Shown: positions 3,914 to 20,917, numbered from the stretch's first letter. The stretch is 52,363 nucleotides of DNA from Bacillota bacterium (GCA_036743175.1 DAINQB010000010.1:1-52363); one strand, 5' to 3'. Program-made: numbers and translations. Notes: a model not told the origin generated them from the letters alone.

Positions 3914-4010
3914 ATCTATATACGAAAAGGCAAACCTGTCGAAAGGCAGCGACGCAAAACTATAGGGCCTGAACCGAAAGGGATGGCAGCCAGGATACCG
4001 AAATTTAGAT
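3914..4010 (+). promoter_or_regulatory. c-di-GMP-I riboswitch aptamer (tandem copy 1)
   Basis: GAAAAGGCAAACCTGTC-GAAA-GGCAGCGACGCAAAACTATAGGGCCT...GGCAGCCAGGATACCGAA. G20/A47/C92 equivalents intact; ATCTA (3914-3918) can pair with TAGAT (4006-4010) to extend P1. Confidence 0.92.
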
Positions 4011-4035: not shown

Positions 4036-4135
4036 ATAACAATGACGAAAAGGCAAATCCACCGAAAGGTGGGGACGCAAAGCCAAAGGGCATAAACAAT
4101 TTTGTACGGCAGCCGGTTACCGAATTTTATGTTAT
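4036..4135 (+). promoter_or_regulatory. c-di-GMP-I riboswitch aptamer (tandem copy 2)
   Basis: GAAAAGGCAAATCCACC-GAAA-GGTGGGGACGCAAAGCC...GGCAGCCGGTTACCGAA, near-consensus. ATAACA (4036-4041) can pair with TGTTAT (4130-4135). Confidence 0.95.
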
Positions 4136-4454: not shown

Positions 4455-4528
4455 TGCCGAATTGTGTAATGGTAGCACAACTGACTCTGGATCAGTCTGT
4501 GAGGGTTCAAATCCTTCTTCGGCAGCCA
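4455..4528 (+). tRNA. tRNA-Gln (anticodon CTG)
   Basis: Acceptor TGCCGAA/TTCGGCA, anticodon arm ACTGA-CTCTGGA-TCAGT, T-loop TTCAAAT, encoded CCA. Confidence 0.97.
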
Positions 4529-5334: not shown

Positions 5335-5590
5335 GTTAAAAGCTGTGAACGGAACAAGTAAGTATCCTGAGGTAGCTAAGAGAACAGCCGGTTGGTGGAA
5401 GGCTGTGTACCGGGATTTCTGAATATCATCCGTGAGCTTTTCCCCGGAATCGAGTATGGGGAAACGGGGGCAACCGTTATCAATGCAGGATATAGAATGT
5501 ATCCGATGAGTGGCTTGCAAAAGCAAACAGGGTGGTACCGCGTGAGAAAATGCTCTTTCGTCCCAGTGTGGATGAGAGGGCTTTATTTAT
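5335..5590 (+). promoter_or_regulatory. T-box riboswitch, Ile specifier
   Basis: Stem I with AGAGA and GGTGGAA elements, specifier ATC at 5425-5427, T-box AACAGGGTGGTACCGCG at 5526-5542, terminator hairpin 5552-5581 + TTTATTT, directly upstream of ileS. Confidence 0.93.
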
Positions 5591-5608
5591 ATACAATTGG
5601 AGGAAGAA

Positions 5609-8600
5609 ATGTACAAAAAAGTTTCAACCAAGCTGGATTTCGCCGAAAGGGAAAAGGAAATCAGGAAATTCTGGAAAGATAATGATATCTTTCGGAAAAG
5701 CATTGAAAACAGGGAGTGTGCTCCGGTATTCACATTTTATGACGGACCCCCGACTGCCAACGGAATGCCTCACATAGGCCATATTCTTACAAGGGTCATC
5801 AAGGACCTTATCCCAAGATACAGGACCATGAAAGGCTACAAGGTGCTCAGAAAGGCCGGTTGGGATACACATGGACTGCCCGTTGAGCTTGAAGTCGAGA
5901 AACTCCTGGGCATAGACGGCAAACCGGAAATCGAAAAGTACGGTGTTGAGCCATTCATCAAGAAGTGCAAGGAAAGTGTTTGGAAGTATAAAGGCAACTG
6001 GGAGATAATGAGTGAAAAAGTAGGTTTCTGGGCGGATATGGACAATCCGTATATAACCTATGACAATAATTACATTGAGTCTGTCTGGTGGGCATTGAAG
6101 ACCATCTGGGACAAGGGCCTTCTTTATAAAGGCCATAAGATTATACCTTATTGTCCAAGATGCGGAACAAGCCTCTCAAGCCATGAGGTTGCACAGGGGT
6201 ACAAGGATGTCCATGATGAATCAATTTATGTAAAGTTCAAGGTCAGGGGTGAAGAGAATACATTCTTCATGGCATGGACGACGACACCTTGGACACTGCC
6301 ATCAAACCTGGCACTTACCGTGGGCCCCGGCATCGAATATGTCAAGGCTTTGCATAATGGAGAAAATATTATAATTGCCAAGGCGCGTATGTCCGAGGTG
6401 CTTGGTGACGGGTCTGAAATAATTGAAGAATACAAGGGAACACAGCTTGAGGGAATGGAATATGAACCTCTGTTTGACTTTGTTTCACCTGATAAAAAGG
6501 CATTCTATGTTTGTCTTGGAGACTTTGTAACCCTGACCGAAGGTACAGGTATAGTTCATACAGCCCCCGCATTCGGTGAAGATGATGCAGTGATAGGAAG
6601 AAAATACGGACTTCCCTTCGTACAGCTGGTGGATGAGCAGGGACACATGACAGAGGAGACGGATTTCGTAGCCGGTATGTTCGTAAAGGATGCTGATCCG
6701 GTTATAATAGAGCATCTCAGGGAGAAGGGACTGCTTCACAGAATAGATGAATATGAGCATTCCTATCCTTTCTGCTGGCGCTGCGACACCCATTTGATTT
6801 ATTATGCCAGGAACACATGGTTCATAGAGATGACTAAACTGAAGGATAATCTCCTTGCAAACAACGATAAAATCAACTGGTATCCGCCTTCAATAGGAGA
6901 AGCCAGGTTCGGTAACTTCTTGAGGAACGTGGTTGACTGGGGTATATCAAGGGAAAGGTACTGGGGAACTCCTCTGCCTATCTGGGAATGCTCATGCGGT
7001 CACAGGGATGCCATAGGAAGTATTGCTGAACTGAAGGATAAGGGAATTAATGTGCCTAAAGACATAGAACTTCATAAACCATATATAGATGAGGTTCATT
7101 TGAGATGTCCTGAATGCCAGGGGGAAATGACAAGGGTCAGTGAAGTCATTGACTGTTGGTTTGACTCAGGGGCTATGCCGTTTGCACAGTGGCACTATCC
7201 CTTTGAGAACAAGGAACTGTTCGAAGAGAATTTCCCGGCGGATTTCATAAGCGAGGCACTTGACCAGACAAGAGGATGGTTCTATACTCTGCTTGCAATT
7301 TCAACCCTGCTCTTCGATGAGCCTGCTTACAAGAACTGTGTGGTCCTTGGACTTGTTCAGAACAAGGACGGACAGAAAATGAGCAAAAGCAAAGGGGATT
7401 ATGTTGATCCGGATGTTGTCCTTGACAACCAGGGAGCAGATGCAGTCAGATGGTATTTCTATACAGCAAGTGCGCCATGGCTTCCAAGCAAATTCTATGA
7501 AGAGGCTGTCAGCGAGGGACAGAGAAAATTCATGGGTACATTCTGGAATACTTATGCATTCTATGTACTGTATGCTGAGATAGACAAGTTCAATCCACTG
7601 CAATACAGCCTTGAATATGACAAGCTTGGTCTGATGGACAGATGGATTCTCTCAAAGCTGAATTCACTTGTTAAATATACCGATGAAAGCCTGGATTCCT
7701 ACAGGATAACCGAACCGGCAAGAGCCATGCAGAAATTCGTTGATGAACTCAGCAACTGGTATGTAAGAAGGGGCAGGGAAAGGTTCTGGCAGAAGGAAAA
7801 CAATCAGGACAAGATAAATGCCTATATGACTTTGTATACGGTCCTTGTTACACTGGCCAAGATATCAGCGCCCTTTGTACCTTTCATGACAGATGAGATA
7901 TACAGGAATCTGGTAGCCGGAATAGATGCAGATGCACCTGAAAGTATCCATCTTTGTGATTTTCCGTCATATGATGAGTCGGTAATCGACGAAGACCTGG
8001 AGAAATACATGGATGAAGTACTTTCAGTTGTAGTCCTTGGAAGAAGCCTCAGGAATACAGCGAACATCAAGAACAGACAGCCTGTTTCCGAACTGCTTCT
8101 GAACAGTGAAACAAGGCTGCCTTCCGATTACCTTGATCTGATACGGGATGAACTTAATGTCAAGAAAGTCAGCTATACGGAAGATGCCACGGCATTCATT
8201 GACTATAATCTCAAACCTCAGCTGAAGACCCTTGGCCCGAAGTACGGAAAGCTTGTTCCAATGATTTACAAGGCACTGGCTGAAGCTGACGGAGCTTATG
8301 TTATGTCGGAATTTGAAAAGGGGAATTCAGTAACATTCAGAATAGAGGATACAGACGTAGTACTCGAAAAAGATGATGTTCTTTCGGAAACAACGCAAAA
8401 AAGCGGATATGTATCCGAAGGCAACGGAAGTCTGACAGCTGTACTTGATACAAATATGACAGAGGAGTTGATCGAGGAAGGTTATGTCAGGGAGATTGTT
8501 AGTAAGATCCAGACCATGCGAAAAGAGGCAGGATACGAAGTACAGGACCACATCCTGCTCAATGTCAGTGGAAGTGACATAATAATGAAGGTTGTTGAAA

Positions 8601-8728
8601 AAAACAGTGATACAATATGCAGTGAAATACTTGCAGACTCATTGTTTGACGGCGAGGGAACCGATGTCTATAAAAAGGATTGGAACATAAACGGGGAAGA
8701 CGCGGTATTCAGCATAGTCAGGAGCTGA
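5609..8728 (+). CDS. ileS: Isoleucine--tRNA ligase, type 2 (eukaryote/archaea-like)
   Basis: FYDGPPTANGMPHIGH, GWDTHGLPVE, WGISRERYWGTPLPIW, KMSKS. ~1040 aa with the type-2 C-terminus. ATG 5609 follows GGAGG. Confidence 0.97.
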   Translation: MYKKVSTKLDFAEREKEIRKFWKDNDIFRKSIENRECAPVFTFYDGPPTANGMPHIGHILTRVIKDLIPRYRTMKGYKVLRKAGWDTHGLPVELEVEKLLGIDGKPEIEKYGVEPFIKKCKESVWKYKGNWEIMSEKVGFWADMDNPYITYDNNYIESVWWALKTIWDKGLLYKGHKIIPYCPRCGTSLSSHEVAQGYKDVHDESIYVKFKVRGEENTFFMAWTTTPWTLPSNLALTVGPGIEYVKALHNGENIIIAKARMSEVLGDGSEIIEEYKGTQLEGMEYEPLFDFVSPDKKAFYVCLGDFVTLTEGTGIVHTAPAFGEDDAVIGRKYGLPFVQLVDEQGHMTEETDFVAGMFVKDADPVIIEHLREKGLLHRIDEYEHSYPFCWRCDTHLIYYARNTWFIEMTKLKDNLLANNDKINWYPPSIGEARFGNFLRNVVDWGISRERYWGTPLPIWECSCGHRDAIGSIAELKDKGINVPKDIELHKPYIDEVHLRCPECQGEMTRVSEVIDCWFDSGAMPFAQWHYPFENKELFEENFPADFISEALDQTRGWFYTLLAISTLLFDEPAYKNCVVLGLVQNKDGQKMSKSKGDYVDPDVVLDNQGADAVRWYFYTASAPWLPSKFYEEAVSEGQRKFMGTFWNTYAFYVLYAEIDKFNPLQYSLEYDKLGLMDRWILSKLNSLVKYTDESLDSYRITEPARAMQKFVDELSNWYVRRGRERFWQKENNQDKINAYMTLYTVLVTLAKISAPFVPFMTDEIYRNLVAGIDADAPESIHLCDFPSYDESVIDEDLEKYMDEVLSVVVLGRSLRNTANIKNRQPVSELLLNSETRLPSDYLDLIRDELNVKKVSYTEDATAFIDYNLKPQLKTLGPKYGKLVPMIYKALAEADGAYVMSEFEKGNSVTFRIEDTDVVLEKDDVLSETTQKSGYVSEGNGSLTAVLDTNMTEELIEEGYVREIVSKIQTMRKEAGYEVQDHILLNVSGSDIIMKVVEKNSDTICSEILADSLFDGEGTDVYKKDWNINGEDAVFSIVRS

Positions 8729-8872: not shown

Positions 8873-10423
8873 ATGAAAAGGATTCTTGCCGCTCTTATAT
8901 TGATTTCATTCATTCTTTCTTTTGCCGGTTGTTCCGGTTTAAAGGAAACTGATGAAGGGATTGATGAAGCGGATACTTTTGAAATATATCTGGCGGGGAC
9001 GGAAAGTGTCAGACAATACGGATATTATGATTATGAAAATCTTACATTGGAAGGAACCCCCGTTCTTACGGGAAATGATGTAAGGAAATATTACTGGGAC
9101 AGCCATATCATGGAGCTAAATGGTACATTTGTTGAAAAGGTATACGGTTCAGGTTCCGGTGATTATGATGAATATGTCATAGACAGTGAAGGCTTCAGGA
9201 GCTATTCAAAGGGAGGCAGCAGGCTGCTTGGTTCTTTCCAATACATGGCTTTTGTTATAGTTGTCAATGGAGAAAAGGTATTCTCAGGCACATTTCCGGG
9301 AAGTCCTGTTATGCCCGTGGAAGGAGAAATGCTTGTTCTGGGTGATATTGCTGAGGACAGGATACAGTTTAAATTCAACGGTGAAGGGTTTGACATAAGA
9401 AACAATGATGCGGTATATGATTACTTTGATGGTGTGCAGAAAATTTCAGAACTGCCTGCCATTGATTCGGATTCAGTGACTGACGAACTTAAAGCCCAGC
9501 TTGATGCAAGCAATGAAAGGTACATTGAGCTCGAAGAAAGATACAATGCCCTTTTATCAGGACTGTCTGATGTTCCTTCAAATGAACAAAGGCTGCAGGC
9601 CCTGGCTGATTGGCAGGAAGCCAGGCTCAATATGTATATGATTGAAACGCAGGAGGGAAGTCAGTTTGAGTTGTTCTGCAGCAGACTCAGTGAACTTGAT
9701 CTTTCTGAAATTTCCAGTCTTGGCACAGCGACGGAGTATTACAGACAGATGGCCGGTGCTGACTTCTATGTGAACGACAGAATGTTCAACGTACTTGAGG
9801 AATGTTACAACACTGTCATTGCAGGTATTCCATATAAATACAGCATGGGTGACATTGATGACGATTTCATAAGGCAGGCAAGGGCTTTCGGTGTCAATAT
9901 CAGCATCGGAAACGGCTACATAGAAGCAACTTTGCAGCCAAGTTATCTTAAGGCAAACTTTGAGTTGTTTGTTTCTGAAATACTGAATGAATACCTTTTA
10001 CTCAAGGACCGGGAGCTTTCATTGATACTTGACACTGAAATGATGACGGCGGCTGATGATGAAAACCTTTATCTTGACATTGAACAGGTTGCGGATCTGG
10101 TCTATGAGTGGAAGAAATTCTCCGATACGTATACAAATGCCTACCCGTTCAATATAAAGGCCAGACTGAAAGCTGAGGAATATCTCGCCATTTATATAGG
10201 TAAGAGGGATTTTGCAACTTCTCCTGTCTATGAACAGGCTACCCAGATACTTACCTCCGAAGCAAAGGCAAGCTATATAAGGTTTCTTGGGGAATACAGG
10301 GACTCTGCTTATTACAGCCTTATTGCTGATTTGTTCATTGTACTTGAGGGAAGCGGGTTCAGACGTGACACGGATGTAACCAATTTCATAGAAAGCACTG
10401 ATTTCAGTGAATATGGTTACTAA
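8873..10423 (+). CDS. Uncharacterised lipoprotein (516 aa) with central coiled coil
   Basis: GGAGG RBS; MKRILAALILISFILSFAG-C lipobox (Cys20); heptad-like ELKAQLDASNERYIELEERYNALL. No recognisable catalytic motif. Confidence 0.75.
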   Translation: MKRILAALILISFILSFAGCSGLKETDEGIDEADTFEIYLAGTESVRQYGYYDYENLTLEGTPVLTGNDVRKYYWDSHIMELNGTFVEKVYGSGSGDYDEYVIDSEGFRSYSKGGSRLLGSFQYMAFVIVVNGEKVFSGTFPGSPVMPVEGEMLVLGDIAEDRIQFKFNGEGFDIRNNDAVYDYFDGVQKISELPAIDSDSVTDELKAQLDASNERYIELEERYNALLSGLSDVPSNEQRLQALADWQEARLNMYMIETQEGSQFELFCSRLSELDLSEISSLGTATEYYRQMAGADFYVNDRMFNVLEECYNTVIAGIPYKYSMGDIDDDFIRQARAFGVNISIGNGYIEATLQPSYLKANFELFVSEILNEYLLLKDRELSLILDTEMMTAADDENLYLDIEQVADLVYEWKKFSDTYTNAYPFNIKARLKAEEYLAIYIGKRDFATSPVYEQATQILTSEAKASYIRFLGEYRDSAYYSLIADLFIVLEGSGFRRDTDVTNFIESTDFSEYGY

Positions 10424-10432
10424 CATGAAACC

Positions 10433-10462
10433 TTGACAAGGGCCTTTTGGCTGATGTAATAT
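10433..10462 (+). promoter_or_regulatory. Sigma-A promoter of the aro operon leader
   Basis: TTGACA (10433-10438), 18-nt spacer, TAATAT (10457-10462). Confidence 0.65.
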
Positions 10463-10479
10463 CTATCCAAGGTATGAAA

Positions 10480-10536
10480 ATGAACATAAGGAATGCAGGA
10501 CAGTTTTATTTTTTCTTTTTTACGGACTTGATCTAG
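10480..10536 (+). CDS. Phe/Tyr-rich attenuator leader peptide MNIRNAGQFYFFFFTDLI (alternative start 10474 adds MK)
   Basis: AAGGT at 10469-10473, ATG 10480, codons TTT TAT TTT TTC TTT TTT at 10504-10521, stop TAG 10534-10536. It lies in the leader of an aromatic amino acid operon and is below the ORF-track size cutoff. Confidence 0.8.
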   Translation: MNIRNAGQFYFFFFTDLI

Positions 10537-10601
10537 TGAGCCCGGTACTGTTTTGTACACATGATGATGACAGAGGCTCACAGGGTCTCTGTTTTTAATT
10601 T
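10536..10601 (+). promoter_or_regulatory. Transcription attenuator (mutually exclusive antiterminator/terminator)
   Basis: GTGAGCC (10536-10542) pairs with GGCTCAC (10575-10581), competing with terminator ACAGAGGCTC-ACA-GGGTCTCTGT (10570-10592) + TTTTAATTT. Confidence 0.8.
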
Positions 10602-10622
10602 CAGCCTTGCAGGAGGAATGAT

Positions 10623-11636
10623 ATGGTAATAGTTTTGAAGCCCCACGCTTCAGCACAAAGAATAGAGGAACTGATTTATCAGATTGAGAAAAAAGGACTT
10701 ACGGTTGAGAAAGTCGTGGGAAGCGATTATACAATCCTGGGCCTGGTAGGAGATACGAGTTCAATTGATATCGACAGCCTTAGGATAAATGAAATAGTTC
10801 ATAAGGCAATGAGGATTCAGGAGCCTTTCAAACGTGCAAACCGCCTTTTTCATCCTAAAAGTTCCATTGTAAAGGTAGGCGGCAGGGAAATAGGAGGAGG
10901 AAAGATTGCAGTCATAGCAGGCCCGTGTTCCGTTGAAACAGAGGACCAGATCGTGGATATTGCACGAAGGGTAAAGGCTGCAGGGGCGGATTTCCTCAGA
11001 GGCGGAGCATTCAAACCAAGAACATCACCATATAGTTTCCAGGGACTTGGATATGAAGGCATTGAACTTCTTGTAATTGCAAAGAAGGAAACGGGACTTC
11101 CCATAGTATCTGAAATACTGTCTGAGAGCATGGTGGACAGGTTTGCAAGGGATGTTGACCTGATACAGGTTGGAGCAAGGAACATGTCCAACTTCATGCT
11201 TTTGAAGGAGCTGGGTAAAATAAGGAAACCCATACTTCTTAAAAGAGGTCTTTCAGCAACAATAGAAGAGTGGCTTATGTCCGCGGAATATATTATGTCA
11301 GAAGGCAATACCCAGGTAATACTTTGTGAAAGGGGAATAAGAACCTTTGAAAAATATACCAGGAATACATTGGATGTCAGTGCAGTTCCGGCAATCAAAA
11401 GGCTCTCTCACCTTCCGATAATAGTTGACCCCAGTCATGCCACCGGGATGGGATGGATGGTCATGCCCATGGCAAGGGCGGCAGTTGCAGCAGGAACAGA
11501 CGGTATCATGATAGAAGTCCATAATGATCCTGAAAATGCCCTCAGTGACGGTAATCAATCAATTACTCCTGAGGATTTCAGCGAGATGATGAATAGTCTT
11601 AGAATTATATCAGGTGCAATAGGCAGGAGGATTTAA
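10623..11636 (+). CDS. aroF: DAHP synthase, class I-beta with N-terminal regulatory domain
   Basis: IAGPCSVE, LRGGAFKPRTSPYSFQG, QVGARNM, LLKRG, CERGIRTF, VDPSHATG, EVH. Confidence 0.95.
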   Translation: MVIVLKPHASAQRIEELIYQIEKKGLTVEKVVGSDYTILGLVGDTSSIDIDSLRINEIVHKAMRIQEPFKRANRLFHPKSSIVKVGGREIGGGKIAVIAGPCSVETEDQIVDIARRVKAAGADFLRGGAFKPRTSPYSFQGLGYEGIELLVIAKKETGLPIVSEILSESMVDRFARDVDLIQVGARNMSNFMLLKELGKIRKPILLKRGLSATIEEWLMSAEYIMSEGNTQVILCERGIRTFEKYTRNTLDVSAVPAIKRLSHLPIIVDPSHATGMGWMVMPMARAAVAAGTDGIMIEVHNDPENALSDGNQSITPEDFSEMMNSLRIISGAIGRRI

Positions 11637-12668
11637 ATGATCATTCCCATTGACCTTGAAAATGGAAGCTACAAAGTATATATATCAAAAGATTCATTTG
11701 ATATTCTTGGAAGTGACATTGAAGAAAGAAAAAGCAGGATATTCATTGTTGCTGACAAACTTGCATATGAATTCCATGGGAAACGCTTCCTTGATTCAAT
11801 CGGTATAAAGCCATCCGGATTATTCATGGTTCACGGTGAGAAAATGAAGAACATGGCTGTTGTTTCAGATATCCTTGAAGCAGCTGCCAATGCAGGAATC
11901 ACAAGGGGTGACTGCATGATTGCCTTCGGCGGAGGTGTCTGCGGTGATATAACAGGATTCTCAGCAGCGATATTCATGAGGGGAATTGATTTTTATCAAG
12001 TCCCCACAACACTACTTTCCCAGGTGGACAGTTCAGTGGGAGGAAAGACAGGGGTTGACCTTAAAGCCGGTAAGAATCTTGCCGGTTGTTTCAAACAGCC
12101 AAAGGGCGTATATATAGACACAGGGGTTCTTGAAACACTGGGGGAATCTGAAATACGACAGGGCAAGGCTGAGATGATCAAGGCTGCTGCAATAAAGGAT
12201 GAAGAACTTTTCCGGTCCTTTGAAGAGGATATGCATATCAATGAGGCTGCCATCGGGGAATGCATCAGAATAAAACTGTCATACGTTGAAAATGATGAAT
12301 ATGATACAGGTAAAAGGATGATACTGAACTTCGGGCATACCATCGCCCATGCACTTGAAAATACCATGGGCTATGGGAATATATCCCACGGAGAGGCAGT
12401 TGCCATCGGGATGGCCCTTTCTGCAGACATGTCTGAAAAAGCAGGTATATCCGAGTTGGGAACTGCAGAGCGGATTAAAAATCTGATTCAATCGCAGGGT
12501 CTTCCTGTTTCCACCGGGTACTCAATTGCAGAGCTTAACCGCTCAATTCTGATTGATAAGAAAGTAAACAGGGGCATGCTAAGGGAAGTATTCCTTGAAA
12601 AGGTAGGGAAGGCAATACTGAAGGAAATGTCACTGGAACAGTTCATGGACATGGGAGAAATCGTATGA
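11637..12668 (+). CDS. aroB: 3-dehydroquinate synthase
   Basis: FGGGVCGDITGF, QVPTTLLSQVDSSVGGKTG, LNFGHTIAHALE, HGEAVAIGM. Confidence 0.95.
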   Translation: MIIPIDLENGSYKVYISKDSFDILGSDIEERKSRIFIVADKLAYEFHGKRFLDSIGIKPSGLFMVHGEKMKNMAVVSDILEAAANAGITRGDCMIAFGGGVCGDITGFSAAIFMRGIDFYQVPTTLLSQVDSSVGGKTGVDLKAGKNLAGCFKQPKGVYIDTGVLETLGESEIRQGKAEMIKAAAIKDEELFRSFEEDMHINEAAIGECIRIKLSYVENDEYDTGKRMILNFGHTIAHALENTMGYGNISHGEAVAIGMALSADMSEKAGISELGTAERIKNLIQSQGLPVSTGYSIAELNRSILIDKKVNRGMLREVFLEKVGKAILKEMSLEQFMDMGEIV

Positions 12669-13897
12669 ATGTCATTGTAAGACCATTCAGACCTCATGGT
12701 AATATCCTGGCCCAGCCTTCAAAGAGTGACAGCCACAGGAAGATAATCTGCGGGGCTTTGTCAGGTCTGCCGTGCACAATAGATAACATCGTATTGTCCG
12801 AGGACATCCAGGCAACCATCGAAGCTCTTGGAAGTGCAGGTTGCAAAATTAAAATCAGTGACAGTTCTGCTTATCCCGGGAGGAAGTTCATTCAAAATGA
12901 AGGCATCCGGCCGTATTCAAATGGAGTCAGGTTCATTGACTGCAGGGAATCCGGATCGACCCTCAGGTTCATGTCCATGATTTTCGCCGTAATTGGGGGC
13001 AGGACGGTTCTGACCGGCAGAGGGAGACTGCCTGAACGCCCCATGGAGCATGCACTGGAATTTTTCAGGAGATACGGCATATCATATACAATACCGGGGA
13101 ATGGAATATATCTGCCCCTCGAAATATCAGGAAGTCTTTCGGGAAAGGAATATGAAGTAGAATCCTCTGTGTCGAGTCAGTTCATATCCGGATTGATGAT
13201 GGGAGTGGCCGCTGCTTCCAGGAAAGCGGTTATAAAGGCTGACGGTGCATTTGAATCAAAGGGGTATGTTGATCTAACGGCCGGAGTCCTTGAAGAGTAC
13301 GGAGTTGAAGTAACAGGTGACAATCCATATTCAATGGATGCTACCGGAGGAATACAGCAAAGGGATACCATAGTCGAAGGGGACTGGTCAAATGCTTCCT
13401 ATTTCATAGCAATGGGCAGGATGGGAGGAAGCCTTACAGTAAGGGGTCTTCAGGACTACTCAAGGCAACCTGACAGGGTGATTGTTGGGTTGCTGGATGA
13501 AATGTCGGATGGGACTGACAATGATATAAATGTATCGGAGTTCCCTGACCTTATGCCGACTCTGGCTGTCTATGCGGCGACATTGCCTGTAAATACAACC
13601 ATTACAGGAAAGAGGTTAAGATACAAGGAGAGCGATAGGATAGGAGCTGTATGCAGGGGTCTCAGGGCGATTGGTATCGATACAGCTGAGCTGGAGGATG
13701 GTATAAGAATCAAGGGAGGAAGTACCATAGACGGCGGAGTTGTTGATTCATGCAATGACCACAGGATAGCCATGGCATTTGCAATCCTTGGGTGTGTATC
13801 AAGAAAAGATATTGTCATAGAAGGTGCCGGATGTGTTGAGAAGTCATATCCGGACTTTTTCAGGGATTTGGTGGAAGCGGGAGGAATTATATCATGA
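12665..13897 (+). CDS. aroA: EPSP synthase
   Basis: PSKSDSHR, ESGSTLRF, RLPERP, SSQFISGL, KESDRI, NDHRIAMAF. Confidence 0.93.
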   Translation: MNVIVRPFRPHGNILAQPSKSDSHRKIICGALSGLPCTIDNIVLSEDIQATIEALGSAGCKIKISDSSAYPGRKFIQNEGIRPYSNGVRFIDCRESGSTLRFMSMIFAVIGGRTVLTGRGRLPERPMEHALEFFRRYGISYTIPGNGIYLPLEISGSLSGKEYEVESSVSSQFISGLMMGVAAASRKAVIKADGAFESKGYVDLTAGVLEEYGVEVTGDNPYSMDATGGIQQRDTIVEGDWSNASYFIAMGRMGGSLTVRGLQDYSRQPDRVIVGLLDEMSDGTDNDINVSEFPDLMPTLAVYAATLPVNTTITGKRLRYKESDRIGAVCRGLRAIGIDTAELEDGIRIKGGSTIDGGVVDSCNDHRIAMAFAILGCVSRKDIVIEGAGCVEKSYPDFFRDLVEAGGIIS

Positions 13898-14970
13898 GTT
13901 TGTTTGGAAGAAACCTAAGAATAAATATATTCGGGGAATCCCACGGACCTGCAATAGGTGTTGTCATTGAAGGAATCCCTGCAGGGATTCTGATTGACAT
14001 GGAACTTGTTAATGAAATGCTTGAAAGAAGGCGGCCGGGAACCGGCAGACATGTCACAAGAAGGACGGAGGGCGATGTTCCCGAAATCATCAGCGGAGTT
14101 CTTGATGGAAAAGCAACAGGAATGCCTATTGCATGTATCATAAGAAACAACGATACAAGGTCCTCGGATTATAAAAATCTTTCGAGTATTCCAAGGCCCG
14201 GACATGCTGATTATACTGCTTATGTCAAATACAATGGATTCAATGACATAAGGGGAGGCGGAGCTTTTTCCGGAAGACTTACAGCTCCTCTTGTATTTGC
14301 AGGAGCCCTGGCCATTTCATATCTAAAGGAGAGGAACATAACCATAGTGTCACATCTCAAATCAATCGGCGGAATAAAGGATTCCGTTCTGGACCCAATG
14401 GAATACATTGCAGCCCAGGAAGCGGCAATCAGACAAAACAGACTTCCCATGATTGACAGCAGTGCCTCTGATCTTGCTGAGGAAAGGCTGACTGAAGCAC
14501 GGATGAACCTTGACTCCCTTGGCAGTGAAATCGAAACAGCAGTGTATGGACTGGAAGCCGGTATCGGAGAACCCGGTTTCAATTCCCTTGAGAGCATGAT
14601 TGCTTCCATTTGCTTCGGGGTTCCCGGTGTGAAGGGCATAGAATTCGGAAAAGGATTTGAACTCGCTTCCATGAAGGGAAGCAGGTCAAATGATGAGTTC
14701 CATTATGTTGATTCCACGGTAAGGACATATAAGAACGATATGGGTGGGATTTTGGGCGGAATTTCAAACGGAATGCCCCTTGTTTTCAATGTATGCATGA
14801 AACCTACTTCATCCATTTCAAGGAAACAGCGAAGCGTTGATCTTTCAAAAGGTGTTGATGCTGAACTTGAGATAAAGGGCAGACATGACCCGTGCATTGG
14901 AATCAGGGCAGTTCCTGTCATTGAGTCCTGTGCAGCAATAGCCCTCATGGATAGTATACTGGAGGCATAG
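13894..14970 (+). CDS. aroC: Chorismate synthase
   Basis: FGESHGPAIG, PRPGHADY, GGGAFSGRLTA, GGILGGISNG, GRHDPCI. Confidence 0.96.
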   Translation: MSLFGRNLRINIFGESHGPAIGVVIEGIPAGILIDMELVNEMLERRRPGTGRHVTRRTEGDVPEIISGVLDGKATGMPIACIIRNNDTRSSDYKNLSSIPRPGHADYTAYVKYNGFNDIRGGGAFSGRLTAPLVFAGALAISYLKERNITIVSHLKSIGGIKDSVLDPMEYIAAQEAAIRQNRLPMIDSSASDLAEERLTEARMNLDSLGSEIETAVYGLEAGIGEPGFNSLESMIASICFGVPGVKGIEFGKGFELASMKGSRSNDEFHYVDSTVRTYKNDMGGILGGISNGMPLVFNVCMKPTSSISRKQRSVDLSKGVDAELEIKGRHDPCIGIRAVPVIESCAAIALMDSILEA

Positions 14971-16089
14971 ATGAAAGAACTTGATGAAAAAAGAAGTATG
15001 ATAAATTCACTGGATAGTGAACTGGCGGTATTGTTTGAAAAAAGGATGAATCTGGTCAGGGAAATAGGGATGCTGAAAGGTGATACCGGAACTGCAGTAT
15101 ATAATCCTGAGAGGGAACTGGCGGTAATAGACAATATCCTTGGGTCCATCAAAGATAATGGGCTATATCCGTATGCATCGGAATTTGCCAGGGATATGAT
15201 GGAGGTTTCGAAGAAATATCAGAAGGATCTTATCAAATCCAGGACAAAGGTCAGACACCTGAAGCTGGAAGAAGGGGGAGAGGCAGGTTATCAGGGAGCA
15301 GAGGGTTCCTATACCGAACAGGCCTTTGCCTGGATTTACGGAGAAGGTACCAAGGCCAGGGCCTATGGCCGGCTGGCTGATTTATTTGAAGCAATATCAT
15401 GCGGAGAATTGTCTGCAGGGGTGGTTCCCTTTGAGAATTCCTCGACCGGCGGTGTCAATGCAGTAACGGATATGATGAGGGATTACGACCTTTACATAAA
15501 GGCAGAAACCGAACTTCGCATTGAGCATTGTCTCCTGGGACAGAAAGGGAGCATGCTCAGGGATATAAAATATGTATATTCGCATCCACAGGCACTTGGA
15601 CAGTGTGCAGGTTTCTTCAGCGAAAATCCCGGACTTACAGAGTGTTCATATCAGAATACTGCATTCGCCGCAAGGGATGTAGCGGCATGGGGGAAAATTG
15701 AAAATGGTGCCATTGCGTCCAAAAGATGCGCCAGACTTTACGGCCTTGATATTGTAAGGGAAGGTATCCAGGACAATACGAAGAACAAGACCAGGTTCAT
15801 CGTAATCAGTGCCGATCCCACACCTGAGGATGATGCATCAAAGACCAGTATACTGTTTACTTCCAATCATACGCCGGGAGCACTGTATAAAATGCTGGAA
15901 CCATTCTATGAAAACAGTATAAACATCACAAGGATTGAATCAAGGCCAAATCCAAGAAGAAGCTTTGAGTATTATTTCTATCTTGATTTCAACGGCAGTG
16001 CCTATGATCAGAATATTGTGAAAGCATTGGAAAAAGCAAAGGAATCCTGCGGGTATTTCAGGATTCTCGGTTCCTACAGAATTATATGA
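14971..16089 (+). CDS. pheA: Chorismate mutase / prephenate dehydratase (P-protein, with ACT domain)
   Basis: N-terminal CM (RSMINSLDSEL..YNPERE); YQGAEGSYTE, PFENSSTG, SHPQALGQC, NKTRF; ACT domain with TRIESRP. Confidence 0.93.
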   Translation: MKELDEKRSMINSLDSELAVLFEKRMNLVREIGMLKGDTGTAVYNPERELAVIDNILGSIKDNGLYPYASEFARDMMEVSKKYQKDLIKSRTKVRHLKLEEGGEAGYQGAEGSYTEQAFAWIYGEGTKARAYGRLADLFEAISCGELSAGVVPFENSSTGGVNAVTDMMRDYDLYIKAETELRIEHCLLGQKGSMLRDIKYVYSHPQALGQCAGFFSENPGLTECSYQNTAFAARDVAAWGKIENGAIASKRCARLYGLDIVREGIQDNTKNKTRFIVISADPTPEDDASKTSILFTSNHTPGALYKMLEPFYENSINITRIESRPNPRRSFEYYFYLDFNGSAYDQNIVKALEKAKESCGYFRILGSYRII

Positions 16090-16096
16090 GGTTTAT

Positions 16097-16879
16097 ATGA
16101 AGCTGGGATTGATAGGTGCAAGACTGGGACACAGCTATTCACGAATAATACATGATATTTTTCATCAGCTTACAGGTCTTGAAAGTTCATATGATTTGAT
16201 TGAAATTCCTGAATCCAGGAATCTTGAACGAAGGGTCAGGGAACTCATGGAAGAAGGGTACGACGGACTCAATGTCACAATACCATATAAAGTCGATATA
16301 CTTCAAATGGCCGGATTTGTTTCTGAGGAGGCAGCTGGAATAGGTGCAGCAAACACAATTCTATATGAAAATGGCGTCATCAGGGCTTTCAACACCGATT
16401 ACTTTGGATTTGCCAAAACACTTGAAATAAGCGGGATTGACGTAAAAGGGAACAACTTCACCATACTTGGTTCAGGAGGGTCGTCAAGGAGTGTTTCCGC
16501 CGTACTTGAGGACATGGGTGCGGATGAGATAAAGATTGCAAGCAGAAGCCGTACAGGAAATGGATTTGTTGACTACAATCACATTGGAGAGGGCTACGGA
16601 CTTGTAAATACAACACCCGTCGGCATGTTCCCGGAAACAGACGGGTGTCCACTTGATGACAGGGCGATTGCCGGTTTTAAAGTTGTCATTGATATAATTT
16701 ATAATCCTTCAAGGACCCTGCTTCTTGAAAAAGCTGAGAGAAACGGAAGTATAACGGCAAACGGGATGATGATGCTTGTGGCACAGGCAGTCAAGGCACA
16801 GGAAATCTGGCGCAGTAGAACCTTCTCAAACGAATTGATAACAGAGATATACAAGCGTATGGAGGGTTATAATGTGTAG
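16097..16879 (+). CDS. aroE: Shikimate dehydrogenase
   Basis: LGHSYS, GLNVTIPYK, GAANT, NTDYFG, GSGGSS, NTTPVGM, DIIYNP, QAVKAQEIW. Confidence 0.94.
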   Translation: MKLGLIGARLGHSYSRIIHDIFHQLTGLESSYDLIEIPESRNLERRVRELMEEGYDGLNVTIPYKVDILQMAGFVSEEAAGIGAANTILYENGVIRAFNTDYFGFAKTLEISGIDVKGNNFTILGSGGSSRSVSAVLEDMGADEIKIASRSRTGNGFVDYNHIGEGYGLVNTTPVGMFPETDGCPLDDRAIAGFKVVIDIIYNPSRTLLLEKAERNGSITANGMMMLVAQAVKAQEIWRSRTFSNELITEIYKRMEGYNV

Positions 16880-17372
16880 GTTCATACTGATAGGAATGTC
16901 CGGATGCGGAAAAAGTACCATAGGCAGGGCTGTTGCAAGGAAAATGGGACTTCAATTCATTGACATTGATGAAGAGATTGAATCAAGGCATGGTAACATC
17001 ACAGATATATTCAAAACCCAGGGTGAACCTCGTTTCAGGGAAATTGAAAGCGCGGAATTTAAAAGAGCCCTGGAAAAGGATAATTCAATGATAGCAACAG
17101 GCGGTGGAATTCTTGGAAGCGAATATAACAGAAGACTTGCATCAAAGGGTACTGTGATATTCATTGACAGGAACATCGAAGGAATCAGGTCATCAATGGA
17201 TGAATCCAACAGGCCTATGCTGAACGGTAAGCCGGGAATGCTGGAAAAATTGTTCAATGACAGATATATGACTTACAAGGAAGCAATGGATTTCACTGTT
17301 GAAAACAATGGTACCGAAAAGGAATGCATAGAAGCCGTATGCGTGTTGGTTGACAAGGTGAGAAGGGGTTGA
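16872..17372 (+). CDS. aroK: Shikimate kinase
   Basis: GMSGCGKST P-loop, DIDEEIE, GEPRFREIE, ATGGG, RPML. Confidence 0.93.
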   Translation: MCRFILIGMSGCGKSTIGRAVARKMGLQFIDIDEEIESRHGNITDIFKTQGEPRFREIESAEFKRALEKDNSMIATGGGILGSEYNRRLASKGTVIFIDRNIEGIRSSMDESNRPMLNGKPGMLEKLFNDRYMTYKEAMDFTVENNGTEKECIEAVCVLVDKVRRG

Positions 17373-17376
17373 AGCA

Positions 17377-18507
17377 ATGGAAATACTTTTGATAGGAAGC
17401 GGCAACAGAGCGACGGCTTATGCCGTATATTTCAGAGAAAACATCAAATGGGTCTGCGACAAGGATGTCAAAAAACCACCTTTGCTGATTGAAGAATATA
17501 ATCTTTCAAATGCAACCGCCATAACTGACTTCAGGGATGCTGACGGTTATGATGCCATAATAATAGCAACTCCTGACCACACGCATCTTGAGATTATGGA
17601 GTGGGCTGTTGGAACGGGGAAACCTATTATGCTGGAAAAACCCGTTGAAGTGAGTACGGATGCCCTTGCAAGGCTTCACACAATAGCAGATGGGTATGAA
17701 CCCGGAATAGTCCTTGGTTTTGGTCTAAGATATACATTCATGTATGACAAGATCATGGAACTGCTTGGTAATGAAGCAATAGGCCCTGTTGTATCCATTG
17801 AAGCCGCTGAAACCCTTGGAGAGCTGCATGCCGCAAGATTTTTCAGAAGATGGCATCGTGACAGCAGACTGAGCGGTGGTATGCTGAATACAAAGTGCAG
17901 TCATGACATGGATATACTTAATATTGCAGTTGCCTCTCTTCCCGTAAAGATTTCTTCCTTTGGATCAAATATGCTTTTCAGGAGGGAAAGGGGACTGGAA
18001 AAATGCAGCAAAAAGTGCCCTGAATATGATACTTGCATATATGTTGATGAAACCGAGTATGTATTTTCATCAGTCGACACGTCAATATGCCCATATAACA
18101 TAGAGTCTGACCTGGTTGACCATCAGACTGTGAACATCTTGTATGAGAATGGTGTGACTGCTGTATTTACCTTATCCATGCATTCTTCAAAAGGCAACAG
18201 GACAATCAGGATACATGGTGAAAAGGGCTGTATAGAAGCAAGTTTCGAAAATCAGGAAGTTTATATGTCAATTAAAAACAGTGAACCGCAGGTATTTCGA
18301 CCGTTGGAAACCGGCGGTAGCCATGGAGGCGGTGACCAGGGTTTATGCAGCTTCTTCACTGATTGTTACAAATGTGGAAAATTTCCAAATCAGATTGGGG
18401 CAGGAATTCTTGCAAGTGCGGTTGCCTTTGCTGCTGATTTATCAAGACTGTCTGGTGAAACGGTTGATTTCACTGAAATTCTCAATTACATATATGGCAA
18501 AAAATGA
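17377..18507 (+). CDS. Gfo/Idh/MocA family NAD(P)-dependent oxidoreductase
   Basis: IGSGNRA dinucleotide-binding motif, IATPDHTH, MLEKP, KCSHDMD, HGGGD. Confidence 0.85.
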   Translation: MEILLIGSGNRATAYAVYFRENIKWVCDKDVKKPPLLIEEYNLSNATAITDFRDADGYDAIIIATPDHTHLEIMEWAVGTGKPIMLEKPVEVSTDALARLHTIADGYEPGIVLGFGLRYTFMYDKIMELLGNEAIGPVVSIEAAETLGELHAARFFRRWHRDSRLSGGMLNTKCSHDMDILNIAVASLPVKISSFGSNMLFRRERGLEKCSKKCPEYDTCIYVDETEYVFSSVDTSICPYNIESDLVDHQTVNILYENGVTAVFTLSMHSSKGNRTIRIHGEKGCIEASFENQEVYMSIKNSEPQVFRPLETGGSHGGGDQGLCSFFTDCYKCGKFPNQIGAGILASAVAFAADLSRLSGETVDFTEILNYIYGKK

Positions 18508-18548
18508 TATAATATCCGGGAATGCTGGATGTAATCGGGAGTCTTTAT

Positions 18549-19604
18549 ATGAAGAAAACAAGAATAGCGATAATAGGGACCGGTAATATTAGTCTATACC
18601 ATCTGAAGACATATAAAAAACTTGGTGATGTTGAAGTAGTCGGGGTATGCGACATAAATTATGAAAGAGCCCTTGAATTCTGCAGGGTAAATGACATACC
18701 CATGGCTTTTGACAATCATATTGACATGCTTGAAAGCATCAAACCCGATGCTGTCAGTGTCTGCACATGGAATGACAGCCACGCAAGGATTTCAATTGAT
18801 GCCATGAATGCCGGAGCCCATGTTCTTTGTGAAAAACCTCTTGCCATGAATGCTATGGAAGCAATGGAGATGAAGAAGGTATCTGAAGAAACCGGCAGAT
18901 TACTGATGGTGGGTTTTGTGAGAAGATTTGCCCAGGGAACCGAAATAATAAAAGACTTCATAGACAATGGCAGACTTGGTGAAATTTATTACGCGAAGAC
19001 AGGATGCATTAGAAGATGCGGAAATCCTACGGGTTGGTTTGCGGATAAAAGCAAATCAGGAGGTGGTCCGCTCATTGACCTCGGAGTACACATGATTGAC
19101 CTTTGCAGATACCTGATGGGGAAACCGAAGACCGCAGGTGTTTACGGTGTTACCTTTGATAAACTCGGTCCCCGGAATGATGTAAAAATGCTAAACCGTT
19201 ACAGGGCTGCGGATCCCGGTACTGTCTGTGATGTAGAGGATTCTGCGGCTGCATTGATAAAATTCAGTAATGGTTCCGCACTTTCAGTGGATGTCAGCTT
19301 CACACTGCATACCGCTGAGGAAAAGATACATTGCGAATTGTTCGGAACAAAAGCCGGTGCCACTGTAATACCCGAAATAAAGATAGCGGGTTCTGATGAA
19401 GGATATAATACTGATATGACTCCTGTTTATTCAAAGGAGTCAAACGAGTTTGAATCCATGTTTGCAAGGGAAATCAGCCATTTCATTGACTGTATCAACG
19501 GACGGAGCCAATGTATAAGTCCTGTTGAAGACGGAGTGGAACTCATGAGGATTCTGGATGCTGTCTATGAAAGTGCTTCAACCGGCAGGGAAGTAAGACT
19601 TTGA
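18549..19604 (+). CDS. Gfo/Idh/MocA family oxidoreductase
   Basis: IIGTGNIS, VCTWNDSH, LCEKPLA, GGGPLIDLGVHMID. ATG 18549 follows GGGAG; the ORF track extends it to 18522. Confidence 0.88.
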   Translation: MKKTRIAIIGTGNISLYHLKTYKKLGDVEVVGVCDINYERALEFCRVNDIPMAFDNHIDMLESIKPDAVSVCTWNDSHARISIDAMNAGAHVLCEKPLAMNAMEAMEMKKVSEETGRLLMVGFVRRFAQGTEIIKDFIDNGRLGEIYYAKTGCIRRCGNPTGWFADKSKSGGGPLIDLGVHMIDLCRYLMGKPKTAGVYGVTFDKLGPRNDVKMLNRYRAADPGTVCDVEDSAAALIKFSNGSALSVDVSFTLHTAEEKIHCELFGTKAGATVIPEIKIAGSDEGYNTDMTPVYSKESNEFESMFAREISHFIDCINGRSQCISPVEDGVELMRILDAVYESASTGREVRL

Positions 19605-19645: not shown

Positions 19646-20917
19646 ATGAAGAAAACCATTTTATCACTGAACTGCGGAAGTTCATCGCTTAAGTACAATC
19701 TGTTTGAAGTCAGGGAAAACAATACGGTTGAGCCTATAATCGGCGGTATTGCGGAGGAAATCGGAAACATCGAACGCAGCACAATGAAGTTCGAAATGAA
19801 CGGCAGCAAAACCAAATATGAAATAAAGCTGCCCGATCATGAGGATGCGCTTGTTGAGATGTTCAGTATATTTGAGAAACAGAATGTTCCAAAGGAAACC
19901 ATCATAGCGATCGGCCACAGGGTTGTCCATGGAGGAGCCAGCTATAATTCCAGTGTTCTGCTCACAGACGAAGTCATTGCTGAAATCAAAAGGCTTTCAC
20001 CAATAGCACCTCTTCATAATCCACAGAATGTCAAGGGAATACTCGTGGCAGAAAAACTTCTTCCGGGAGTTCCCAATGTAGCTGTATTTGATACGGCCTT
20101 CCATGCCACTATTCCCGAATATGCATATAAATATGCTCTTCCTGATGAGTGGTTCACTGAATATATGGTGAGGCGCTATGGATTCCATGGGACAAGCCAT
20201 CTGTATGTTTCCAGAAGGGCTGCTGCCATACTTGGCATGAAACATGATGAAATCAACTGCGTTACAGCACATATGGGCAATGGTTCCAGCCTTACAAAGG
20301 TGGTTGGCGGAAAAAGCATGGATACCAGTATGGGATTCACCCCGCTTGAAGGCGTCATCATGGGAACCAGGAGCGGGGACATAGACCCTGCGATCATAGG
20401 ACATGTTGCACACCTGAAGGCGGATGAAAAGAATATGGACCTTGGAGCTGCATATGATGAAGTGATGCGGATGCTCAACAAAGAAAGCGGCCTCAAGGGT
20501 ATAAGCGGTACAAACCTCATGCAGGATATAAGGGCAAAAGCACTTGAAGGAGATGCTGAAAGTGATCGTATTGTAGACATCTATGCTTACAGACTTGCAA
20601 AATATATTGGAAGTTATATGGGTACAACAGAATACTGTGATGCCATTATTTTCACTGCAGGAGTGGGTGAAAATGAATGGTATGTAAGGGAAAAAGTCCT
20701 TGGTATGCTGAAAAGCTGCGATTTCAAGATTGACAAGGAAGCAAACAGGGTTCGCGGTGAGGAAATTGTGATTGCAGAAGGAACCTTCAGCGGCCGTAAG
20801 GTGAAGGCAATGGTGATACCCACGGACGAAGAAATTGTAATTGCATACGATACCCTTTTCATCGGAGCACTGGGACTTGAAGCTCCCGAGAATTATCCCT
20901 TTGAAGAGGTAGACTGA
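19646..20917 (+). CDS. ackA: Acetate kinase
   Basis: LNCGSSSLKY, GHRVVHGG, APLHNP, FDTAFH, RRYGFHGTSH, MDTSMGFTPLEG, FTAGVGEN, PTDEE. Confidence 0.95.
   Translation: MKKTILSLNCGSSSLKYNLFEVRENNTVEPIIGGIAEEIGNIERSTMKFEMNGSKTKYEIKLPDHEDALVEMFSIFEKQNVPKETIIAIGHRVVHGGASYNSSVLLTDEVIAEIKRLSPIAPLHNPQNVKGILVAEKLLPGVPNVAVFDTAFHATIPEYAYKYALPDEWFTEYMVRRYGFHGTSHLYVSRRAAAILGMKHDEINCVTAHMGNGSSLTKVVGGKSMDTSMGFTPLEGVIMGTRSGDIDPAIIGHVAHLKADEKNMDLGAAYDEVMRMLNKESGLKGISGTNLMQDIRAKALEGDAESDRIVDIYAYRLAKYIGSYMGTTEYCDAIIFTAGVGENEWYVREKVLGMLKSCDFKIDKEANRVRGEEIVIAEGTFSGRKVKAMVIPTDEEIVIAYDTLFIGALGLEAPENYPFEEVD

Follow-up and report, generated by a model that had tools for sequence, protein, structure and literature searches.

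The window analysed here, a stretch of 52,363 nucleotides (nt) from a Clostridia-class Bacillota bacterium (GCA_036743175.1, DAINQB010000010.1:1-52363), contains a predicted operon, aroF-aroB-aroA-aroC-pheA-aroE-aroK, whose products make chorismate and Phe. The intergenic region that precedes it, bounded by an open reading frame (ORF) of 516 amino acids (aa; 8873-10423) and by aroF (10623-11636), carries a short leader with the parts of a ribosome-mediated Phe/Tyr attenuator, which is the subject of this study. The leader comprises the following features:

10433-10462, + strand: sigma-70-type promoter, with -35 box TTGACA (10433-38), an 18-nt spacer and -10 box TAATAT (10457-62)
10469-10473, + strand: Shine-Dalgarno (SD)-like AAGGT, separated by a 6-nt spacer from the conserved leader ATG
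10480-10536, + strand: leader ORF of 18 codons, from ATG 10480 to the stop TAG (10534-36), with the predicted peptide MNIRNAGQFYFFFFTDLI
10494-10557, + strand: helix P1, a possible anti-antiterminator or pause element, in which 10494-10504 pairs with 10547-10557 in the minimum free energy (MFE) structure of the full leader
10504-10521, + strand: putative regulatory codons TTT TAT TTT TTC TTT TTT, read as FYFFFF (five Phe, one Tyr)
10523-10544, + strand: weak local hairpin, in which the tail codons CGG-A-CUU (10523-29) pair with GAG-C-CCG (10538-44)
10536-10542, + strand: predicted antiterminator 5' strand GUGAGCC, overlapping the leader stops TAG (10534-36) and TGA (10537-39)
10575-10581, + strand: predicted antiterminator 3' strand GGCUCAC, made up of the final five bases of the terminator 5' arm and two bases of the loop
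10569-10601, + strand: intrinsic terminator, with an 11-pair stem (10569-79 / 10583-93) and loop ACA, followed by UUUUUAAUUU

Two in-frame ATG codons, at 10474 and 10480, read to the TAG at 10534-36, which is directly followed by TGA 10537-39 as a second in-frame stop. Since ATG 10474 is replaced by GTG, AGG or GCG in other members and ATG 10480 alone is conserved with a usable SD, the leader start was assigned to the latter, giving a length of 18 codons. The run at 10504-10521 is the sole six-residue window with 6/6 aromatic residues detected by scanning the six frames of the 52-kb window, in which windows with at least 5/6 aromatic residues occur in just four other places. Further downstream, GTGAGCC (10536-42) and GGCTCAC (10575-81) are perfectly complementary over 7 bp, and this predicted antiterminator is the MFE structure of the RNA 10522-10582 (-15.4 kcal/mol), the portion available until the terminator 3' arm is synthesised. 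The antiterminator shares bases with the terminator 5' arm, so that the two structures are mutually exclusive, and the RNA from 10560 onward adopts the terminator fold. The fold of the terminator segment was equalled by none of 200 shuffles (z = -3.3); a T-run lies at 10592-96, the sequence past the stem reading TTTTTAATTT, and its end is 26 nt from the ATG of aroF (10623), whose SD is GGAGG (10612-16).

A previous examination of the window from its sequence alone (the sequence-only reading) had described the promoter, an ORF of 18-20 codons with six consecutive aromatic codons, and a stop overlapping GTGAGCC that pairs with GGCTCAC. All of these were recovered at the coordinates given above, with the conserved ATG settling the length of the ORF. 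The terminator proposed before aroF was recovered as well, with its U-run and a stem at 10569-10593 in place of 10570-10592, whereas its distance to aroF had been given as ~20 nt.

Relatives were gathered by an AroF protein search alone, so that their choice was blind to the leader. Thirteen loci from uncultured Clostridia or Clostridiaceae were obtained from GTDB species genomes (L001-L009) and JGI metagenomes (L081-L084), with AroF identities of 76-92%, yielding 14 sequences together with the window. These genomes are not close, since identity to the relatives is 43-67% for AroB and AroA and 39-64% for the upstream 516-aa protein, the latter being absent in L008, L009 and L084. AroF is far better conserved (76-92%) than AroB, AroA and AroC (43-78%), and the order aroF-aroB-aroA-aroC is kept in all relatives over the extent of each locus.

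The leader ORF is present in 13/13 of these relatives (AroF identity of at least 76%), and an ORF scan of 160 aroF loci confined the leader motif to loci with AroF identity at or above that same value. Examples of the relative peptides are MNIRNTKQ-FYAFFF-TDLTK, MNYLTTRK-FYFFFY-RDNSK, MRTNYNGQ-FYFFFF-RNCEK, MNRTNTAW-FYFYFI-KGCVK, MKLMNSNS-FYFFFF-RDH, MANTKMNS-FYFYFF-RDH and MNTLTITTS-FYFYFI-NYM. The run follows the pattern F-Y-[F/A/S]-[F/Y]-F-[F/Y/I], written in the aromatic codons TTT/TTC/TAT/TAC, with TTT, GCA, TCA or TCT as codon 3, TTC or TAT as codon 4, and TTT, TAC or ATA as codon 6; it opens with F-Y in 14/14 leaders, the Tyr codon being invariant. Phe/Tyr interchanges within the run take two base changes and break the U-tract, as would be expected if selection acted on aromatic codons and not on a U-rich RNA. 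The sequence-only reading had proposed that relatives be searched upstream of aroF for F/Y runs with a conserved frame and synonymous variation, and all 13 relatives displayed such a run.

Initiation signals follow the same frame. In the F/Y frame the ATG stands 24 nt ahead of the run in 13/14 sequences and, in L008, 27 nt ahead of it. The two alternative frames have an upstream ATG in 2/28 frame-by-sequence cases, where it is not conserved. The SD position reads AAGGT or AAGGTG in the 11 core sequences and GGGAG or AAGGA in the three divergent ones, and TTGACA and the -10 region are likewise kept (alignment A1). The eight N-terminal codons of the leader diverge freely, and lengths vary by multiples of three on either side of the run, at 24 or 27 nt ahead of it and 15, 12 or 9 nt in the tail. 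Across alignments A1-A3, the run and the terminator region are near-invariant, in contrast to the stretch from the terminator to the aroF SD, which varies and is rich in indels.

In 14/14 sequences the leader stop overlaps the antiterminator 5' strand or immediately precedes it. Ten relatives have a TGA inside GUGAG(C/U)C, the three most divergent leaders have a TAA 1-2 nt ahead of (U)UGAGC, and in the window an AAG has been changed to TAG one codon earlier than the TGA of the relatives. The distance from the last codon of the run to the antiterminator 5' strand is similarly held at 12-14 nt in 14/14. A bacterial ribosome usually protects ~12-15 nt beyond its P/A site in the 3' direction; one stalled on the final run codons would just clear the antiterminator strand, and one terminating at the stop would cover it. 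The parts, their geometry and their conservation in 13 relatives are direct observations.

Because MAFFT placed the terminator region of L008, L009 and L084 wrongly, pair counts were limited to the 11 core sequences (alignment A3), and these three divergent leaders were examined by folding. In the terminator, 99.2% of cells are paired, with one compensatory change from A-U to G-C (L003, L005) and several wobble changes. In the antiterminator, 77/77 cells are paired across three independent single changes (a C-to-U change present in L003, L004 and L005, a second C-to-U in L082 and an A-to-G in L002), none of which disrupts its pairing or, where relevant, that of the terminator. L008, L009 and L084 retain complementary segments in shifted or extended register, and the antiterminator helix of L084 is 10 bp long and dominates its MFE structure. 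Covariation statistics as proof of the antiterminator helix were dropped, because sequence similarity is too high and the shuffle control uninformative; the pairing data are consistent with the helix rather than a proof of it.

Two accessory helices were predicted besides these. P1 encloses the aromatic run and GUGAGCC, its 5' strand being formed by the codons just before and entering the run, and in ~9/14 sequences, namely the window, L001, L007, L081 and the L006 group, the duplex is stronger than in shuffled controls. A tail-codon hairpin comparable to that of the window is predicted in 13/14 sequences (-3.4 to -6.4 kcal/mol), none of them clearly beating its own shuffles; on ribosome-free RNA it would tie up some of the antiterminator 5' strand. 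Both were considered and rejected as universal 1:2 elements, neither being conserved clade-wide: P1 appears to be lineage-specific, and any regulatory role is putative.

Our analyses thus support the proposal of a ribosome-mediated Phe/Tyr attenuator, through the conserved leader, its frame, the position of its stop and the 12-14-nt gap shared by the relatives. We consider it likely, on comparative sequence grounds, that this is a classical attenuator coupling the aroF-to-aroK operon to charged tRNA-Phe and, secondarily, to charged tRNA-Tyr. Sensing is probably mainly of Phe, because there are five Phe codons to one Tyr codon, and the precedent of Corynebacterium glutamicum, discussed below, agrees. 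From the arrangement described we infer leader translation, stalling, the footprint distances and the regulatory outcome, as follows. Transcription would start a few bases past the -10 box (10457-62), and a ribosome would load at AAGGU/AUG (10480) and translate the 18-codon leader. When Phe and Tyr are plentiful, the ribosome would reach the stop (10534-39), its footprint covering GUGAGCC (10536-42); with this strand masked, the terminator hairpin 10569-93 and its U-run would form and RNA polymerase would halt before aroF. When Phe-tRNA or Tyr-tRNA is scarce, the ribosome would stall within 10504-10521 with its leading edge short of 10536, and the freed GUGAGCC would pair with GGCUCAC (10575-81) once this is transcribed, sequestering the terminator 5' arm and allowing read-through into the operon. 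P1 (10494-504 with 10547-57) and the tail hairpin could act as a 1:2 element, favouring termination when the leader is not translated, or pausing the polymerase.

Several observations weigh against this interpretation. Bacillota are classed at the phylum level as organisms with runaway transcription, in which polymerases outpace ribosomes (PMC13323073), and for this reason ribosome-coupled attenuation is less expected there and would need polymerase pausing. The predicted 5' untranslated region ahead of the SD is very short, the SD beginning ~7 nt past the -10 box. The remaining two frames of the U-rich run likewise encode Phe-rich peptides, so that the assignment of the leader frame depends on the start and stop codons. 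The fold of the full leader is not unusually stable (z = -1.5); P1 is missing in L002, L005, L008, L009 and L084, so that the 1:2 element is not clade-wide; terminator covariation amounts to the single compensatory pair; and no double compensatory change was found in the antiterminator among the 11 core sequences, its covariation being weak and the shuffle control equalling the observed value, which cannot separate a helix from plain conservation. Finally, the source organism is known from metagenomes only.

The run contains slippery U-stretches, and a frame shifted by +2 relative to the leader is open from the U-rich run over the antiterminator and the terminator to TAA 10596-98 (window 10506-10598). 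In L001 this frame is still open beyond the terminator, and in the other relatives it is closed 17-59 nt from the start of the run; it is probably incidental.

Different scenarios might otherwise explain the leader. The short ORF could be translated and act on mRNA stability, Rho protection or ribosome delivery, downstream of which a constitutive, partial terminator would work independently of Phe and Tyr. The terminator is indeed thermodynamically preferred in most full-length leaders, and both the weak antiterminator covariation and the runaway transcription predicted for Bacillota (PMC13323073) would agree with such a scenario, which nevertheless leaves unexplained the six in-frame aromatic codons with their Phe/Tyr swaps, the stop that always falls on the segment complementary to the terminator 5' arm, and the fixed 12-14-nt gap between run and segment; we regard it as unlikely. 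Somewhat less likely still is an untranslated RNA whose U-rich tract and hairpins bind a protein or a small ligand, as in a riboswitch or a NusG or pause element, with the ORF being incidental. In favour of this explanation, conservation peaks at the U-rich run and the terminator region (A1-A3) and the run is Phe-rich in every frame, whereas the conservation of SD and ATG in the F/Y frame only, length differences in multiples of three before the run and in the tail, and freely drifting N-terminal codons speak for translation. Furthermore, interchanges between TTC and TAT and between TTT and TAC disrupt the U-tract and retain aromatic residues, and there is neither a structured aptamer-like fold (z = -1.5) nor an Rfam match.

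The two remaining explanations are very improbable. A degenerate T-box or TRAP-type attenuator could be suspected in a Firmicute aromatic operon, the more so as a genuine T-box lies elsewhere in the window. The leader, however, has no T-box match (RF00230) at E <= 10 and no GGUGGNACC core, and it spans just ~130 nt between the predicted transcript start and the U-run end, too short for a T-box. TRAP-regulated leaders contain nine to eleven (G/U)AG triplets spaced 2-3 nt apart, an array absent from 10463-10622, where four such triplets occur and none are chained at that spacing; this explanation is effectively refuted. A chance arrangement of U-run, ORF and terminator might arise in an AT-rich intergenic region, in which U-runs are common, but no other 6/6 aromatic window exists in the six frames of the 52 kb, and the whole arrangement is kept in 13/13 relatives whose neighbouring proteins are 43-67% identical, a conservation that refutes chance. 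With Rfam, neither the whole window scanned at gathering thresholds nor 10350-10700 scanned permissively (E <= 10) gave anything relevant over the leader; the matches to mir-194, L10_leader and psbJ in the permissive scan are unrelated and at chance level. The statement of the sequence-only reading that the leader lacks a T-box motif is therefore upheld, the same Rfam library detecting the T-box at 5336-5568. Similarly, the gathering scan of 20 related loci identified no family near aroF, and T-boxes therefore do not account for the leaderless Erysipelotrichaceae loci.

The genes proposed to be regulated by the attenuator are:

10623-11636, + strand: aroF, type I-beta 3-deoxy-D-arabino-heptulosonate 7-phosphate (DAHP) synthase, the first regulated gene (NF006421, E = 7.6e-150)
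11637-12668, + strand: aroB (NCBIfam)
12665-13897, + strand: aroA (NCBIfam)
13894-14970, + strand: aroC (NCBIfam)
14971-16089, + strand: pheA, chorismate mutase/prephenate dehydratase (NCBIfam)
16097-16879, + strand: aroE (NCBIfam)
16872-17372, + strand: aroK (NCBIfam)

Downstream of aroK, on the same strand, lie two oxidoreductases of the GFO/IDH/MocA family (17377-18507 and 18522-19604) and acetate kinase (19646-20917). Gaps of 4, 14 and 41 nt separate these genes, and no terminator was predicted from aroK to acetate kinase. Seven genes had been proposed as the target of control; NCBIfam identifies the seven aro/phe ORFs, and the attenuator-controlled transcript may run past them. Upstream, the 516-aa ORF (8873-10423) begins with a lipoprotein-like signal (MKRILAALILISFILSFAGCSG) and has no Pfam match, and homologues of its product precede the aroF leader in most relatives.

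Other regulatory RNAs are found in the window. The Rfam scan detected a full-length T-box leader at 5336-5568 (123 bits) upstream of an ORF for a class I tRNA synthetase (5597-8728; 1043 aa, with a DUF5915 C-terminal domain), which is presumably the isoleucyl-tRNA synthetase (IleRS), in agreement with the T-box previously placed ahead of ileS. One genome would thus employ both a T-box and, as we think likely from the leader described here, a leader peptide. Three c-di-GMP-I riboswitch aptamers occur at 1-67, 3919-4002 and 4042-4124, the first truncated by the window start and the other two arranged in tandem (63.6 and 69.3 bits) just upstream of a tRNA-Gln (4455-4528).

Aromatic leader ORFs of other, clearly distinct kinds occur elsewhere in the set of 160 aroF loci. 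In Acetobacterium and other Eubacteriaceae (L010-L022, L086-L094), aroF is preceded by a conserved leader ORF of ~40 codons (MEELRRNLNEYYYVNTQSYWFFSFGYF...), exemplified by MEELRRNLNEYYYVNTQSYWFFSFGYFACNKLSSFENPNP, which is rich in Tyr, Trp and Phe (L013, ORF 2653-2776, terminator ~2810-2845). An internal hairpin covers its SYWFFSFG codons and a strong terminator (AGGAGGCUUC..GAAGCCUCC) with a U-run follows, ~150 nt from aroF. From its sequence, this leader looks like an attenuator sensing all three aromatic amino acids, in cultured species. In two loci from metagenome Ga0123353 (L100, 1257-1358, and L105; AroF 59-60% identical), the leader ORF MRNSVYCKTVYNYSFYYYYYVSAQNTESAIKYS contains a run of Tyr codons (...YNYSFYYYYYVS...) with a terminator (GGGAGACUCUGU..AGAGUCUCCC) and U-run downstream, and a segment within the ORF, ACAGAGUCU, is complementary to the terminator 5' arm and constitutes a candidate antiterminator.

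A third type, found in Armatimonadota and several untitled metagenome contigs (L069, L073, L080, L131, L135, L139, L142, L143, L146, L147, L150, L151 and L153), is a conserved ORF before aroF that ends in ...F(Y/F)FAFYFWRR and a stop. Its last codons and stop are embedded in the GC-rich hairpin GGCGCCGG-UAAGG-CGCCGGCGCC, and no U-run comes after it; if the ORF is regulatory, its output is probably not an intrinsic terminator. In L023, L024, L029 and L064, an ORF with three Trp codons (M-Y-Y-L-L-W-W-W) ~270 nt upstream of aroF was rejected as a Trp leader, because it is an out-of-frame reading of a GGG motif inside the preceding shikimate kinase gene, an artefact that calls for caution in automated scans for leader peptides. 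It is conceivable, if rather doubtful, that aromatic leader attenuators before type I-beta aroF operons are recurrent and independently evolved in anaerobic Bacillota lineages and Armatimonadota; the Bacillota candidates come from the present Clostridia clade, from Acetobacterium and other Eubacteriaceae, and from the metagenomic lineage with the Tyr run. If these are truly transcription attenuators, ribosomes would have to keep pace with RNA polymerase in lineages considered runaway, or pausing would be programmed there; the U-rich Phe run might double as such a pause signal.

One leader of 130 nt is thus proposed to control the whole common shikimate pathway together with pheA. As automated annotation misses leaders of this kind, the aromatic regulons of uncultured Clostridia are currently mis-described. 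The Acetobacterium leaders, related to that of the window and different from it, occur in cultured species and offer a tractable system for studying ribosome-coupled attenuation and polymerase pausing in Bacillota.

T-boxes, TRAP and riboswitches are considered the norm in Firmicutes. The leader described here shares with T-box and TRAP control of aromatic genes the choice between terminator and antiterminator as its output, the proposed sensor being a translating ribosome and not an uncharged tRNA bound to RNA or the TRAP protein. Firmicutes do possess attenuators of the classical kind that respond to amino acids and are able to take the place of T-boxes: bacilli carry a His leader before hisZ/hisS paralogues (PMC2965389), and the ilv-leu operon of Staphylococcus aureus has a Leu-rich attenuator peptide (PMC5794164). 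Drug-sensing leader peptides that rely on NusG pausing are described for Bacillus subtilis (PMC4191407, PMC6851288). The His and Leu leaders belong to the class Bacilli and serve other amino acids and operons, none being aromatic and none from Clostridia. The leader of the window adds a well-conserved Clostridia example to this short list.

Its attenuation logic is that of Escherichia coli pheL. With the enterobacterial pheL/pheA system (and with pheM/pheST) it shares a short ORF with a Phe run, a terminator, an overlapping antiterminator and a stalled ribosome that would permit read-through, and like pheL it precedes a gene of Phe biosynthesis, pheA also being part of the operon here. It differs from pheL in its Clostridia-class Firmicute host, in its invariant Tyr codon, in lacking sequence or structure homology, with no relevant Rfam family matching the leader even at E <= 10 in a library that would cover the models of enterobacterial amino-acid leaders, and in preceding the whole common shikimate pathway from aroF onward instead of pheA alone. 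A U-rich slippery run has been noted in pheL as well (PMC3082878).

Within Bacillota in the broad sense, a similar set of parts before aroF is found in the uORFC-13-1 motif, an upstream ORF (uORF) that we compare here by its prose description only. As described by Brewer et al. 2021 (PMC8632094), the motif has a promoter, a ribosome-binding site and a start codon, then a U-run that encodes Phe, with an intrinsic terminator next to it. Its 24 representatives, from Acholeplasma and unassigned environmental sequences, lie exclusively upstream of aroF, and a Phe-dependent uORF with 'at least one' Phe codon was proposed (PMC8632094). A literature search joining leader peptide, attenuator, Clostridia and phenylalanine found no paper.

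The closest functional analogue, compared by description, is the aroR leader of C. glutamicum, which, according to PMC11802643 (citing Neshat et al. 2014) and PMC7356990, contains Phe-Tyr-Phe and lies directly upstream of the DAHP synthase gene aroF. Ribosome stalling on aroR is reported, in PMC11802643, to raise transcription of the aroF operon under limitation of Phe, not of Tyr. The novelty claimed by the sequence-only reading was consequently overstated, as aromatic leader attenuators before aroF had already been described in C. glutamicum or proposed in Acholeplasma; the Clostridia leader reveals no new mechanism and is a lineage-specific addition to a known one. C. glutamicum belongs to the Actinobacteria, and the run of its leader has three aromatic residues versus six here; an independent origin of aroR and the Clostridia leader seems likely. 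The F-Y start of the run, invariant in all 14 leaders, parallels the Phe-Tyr-Phe of aroR and hints at a convergent design.

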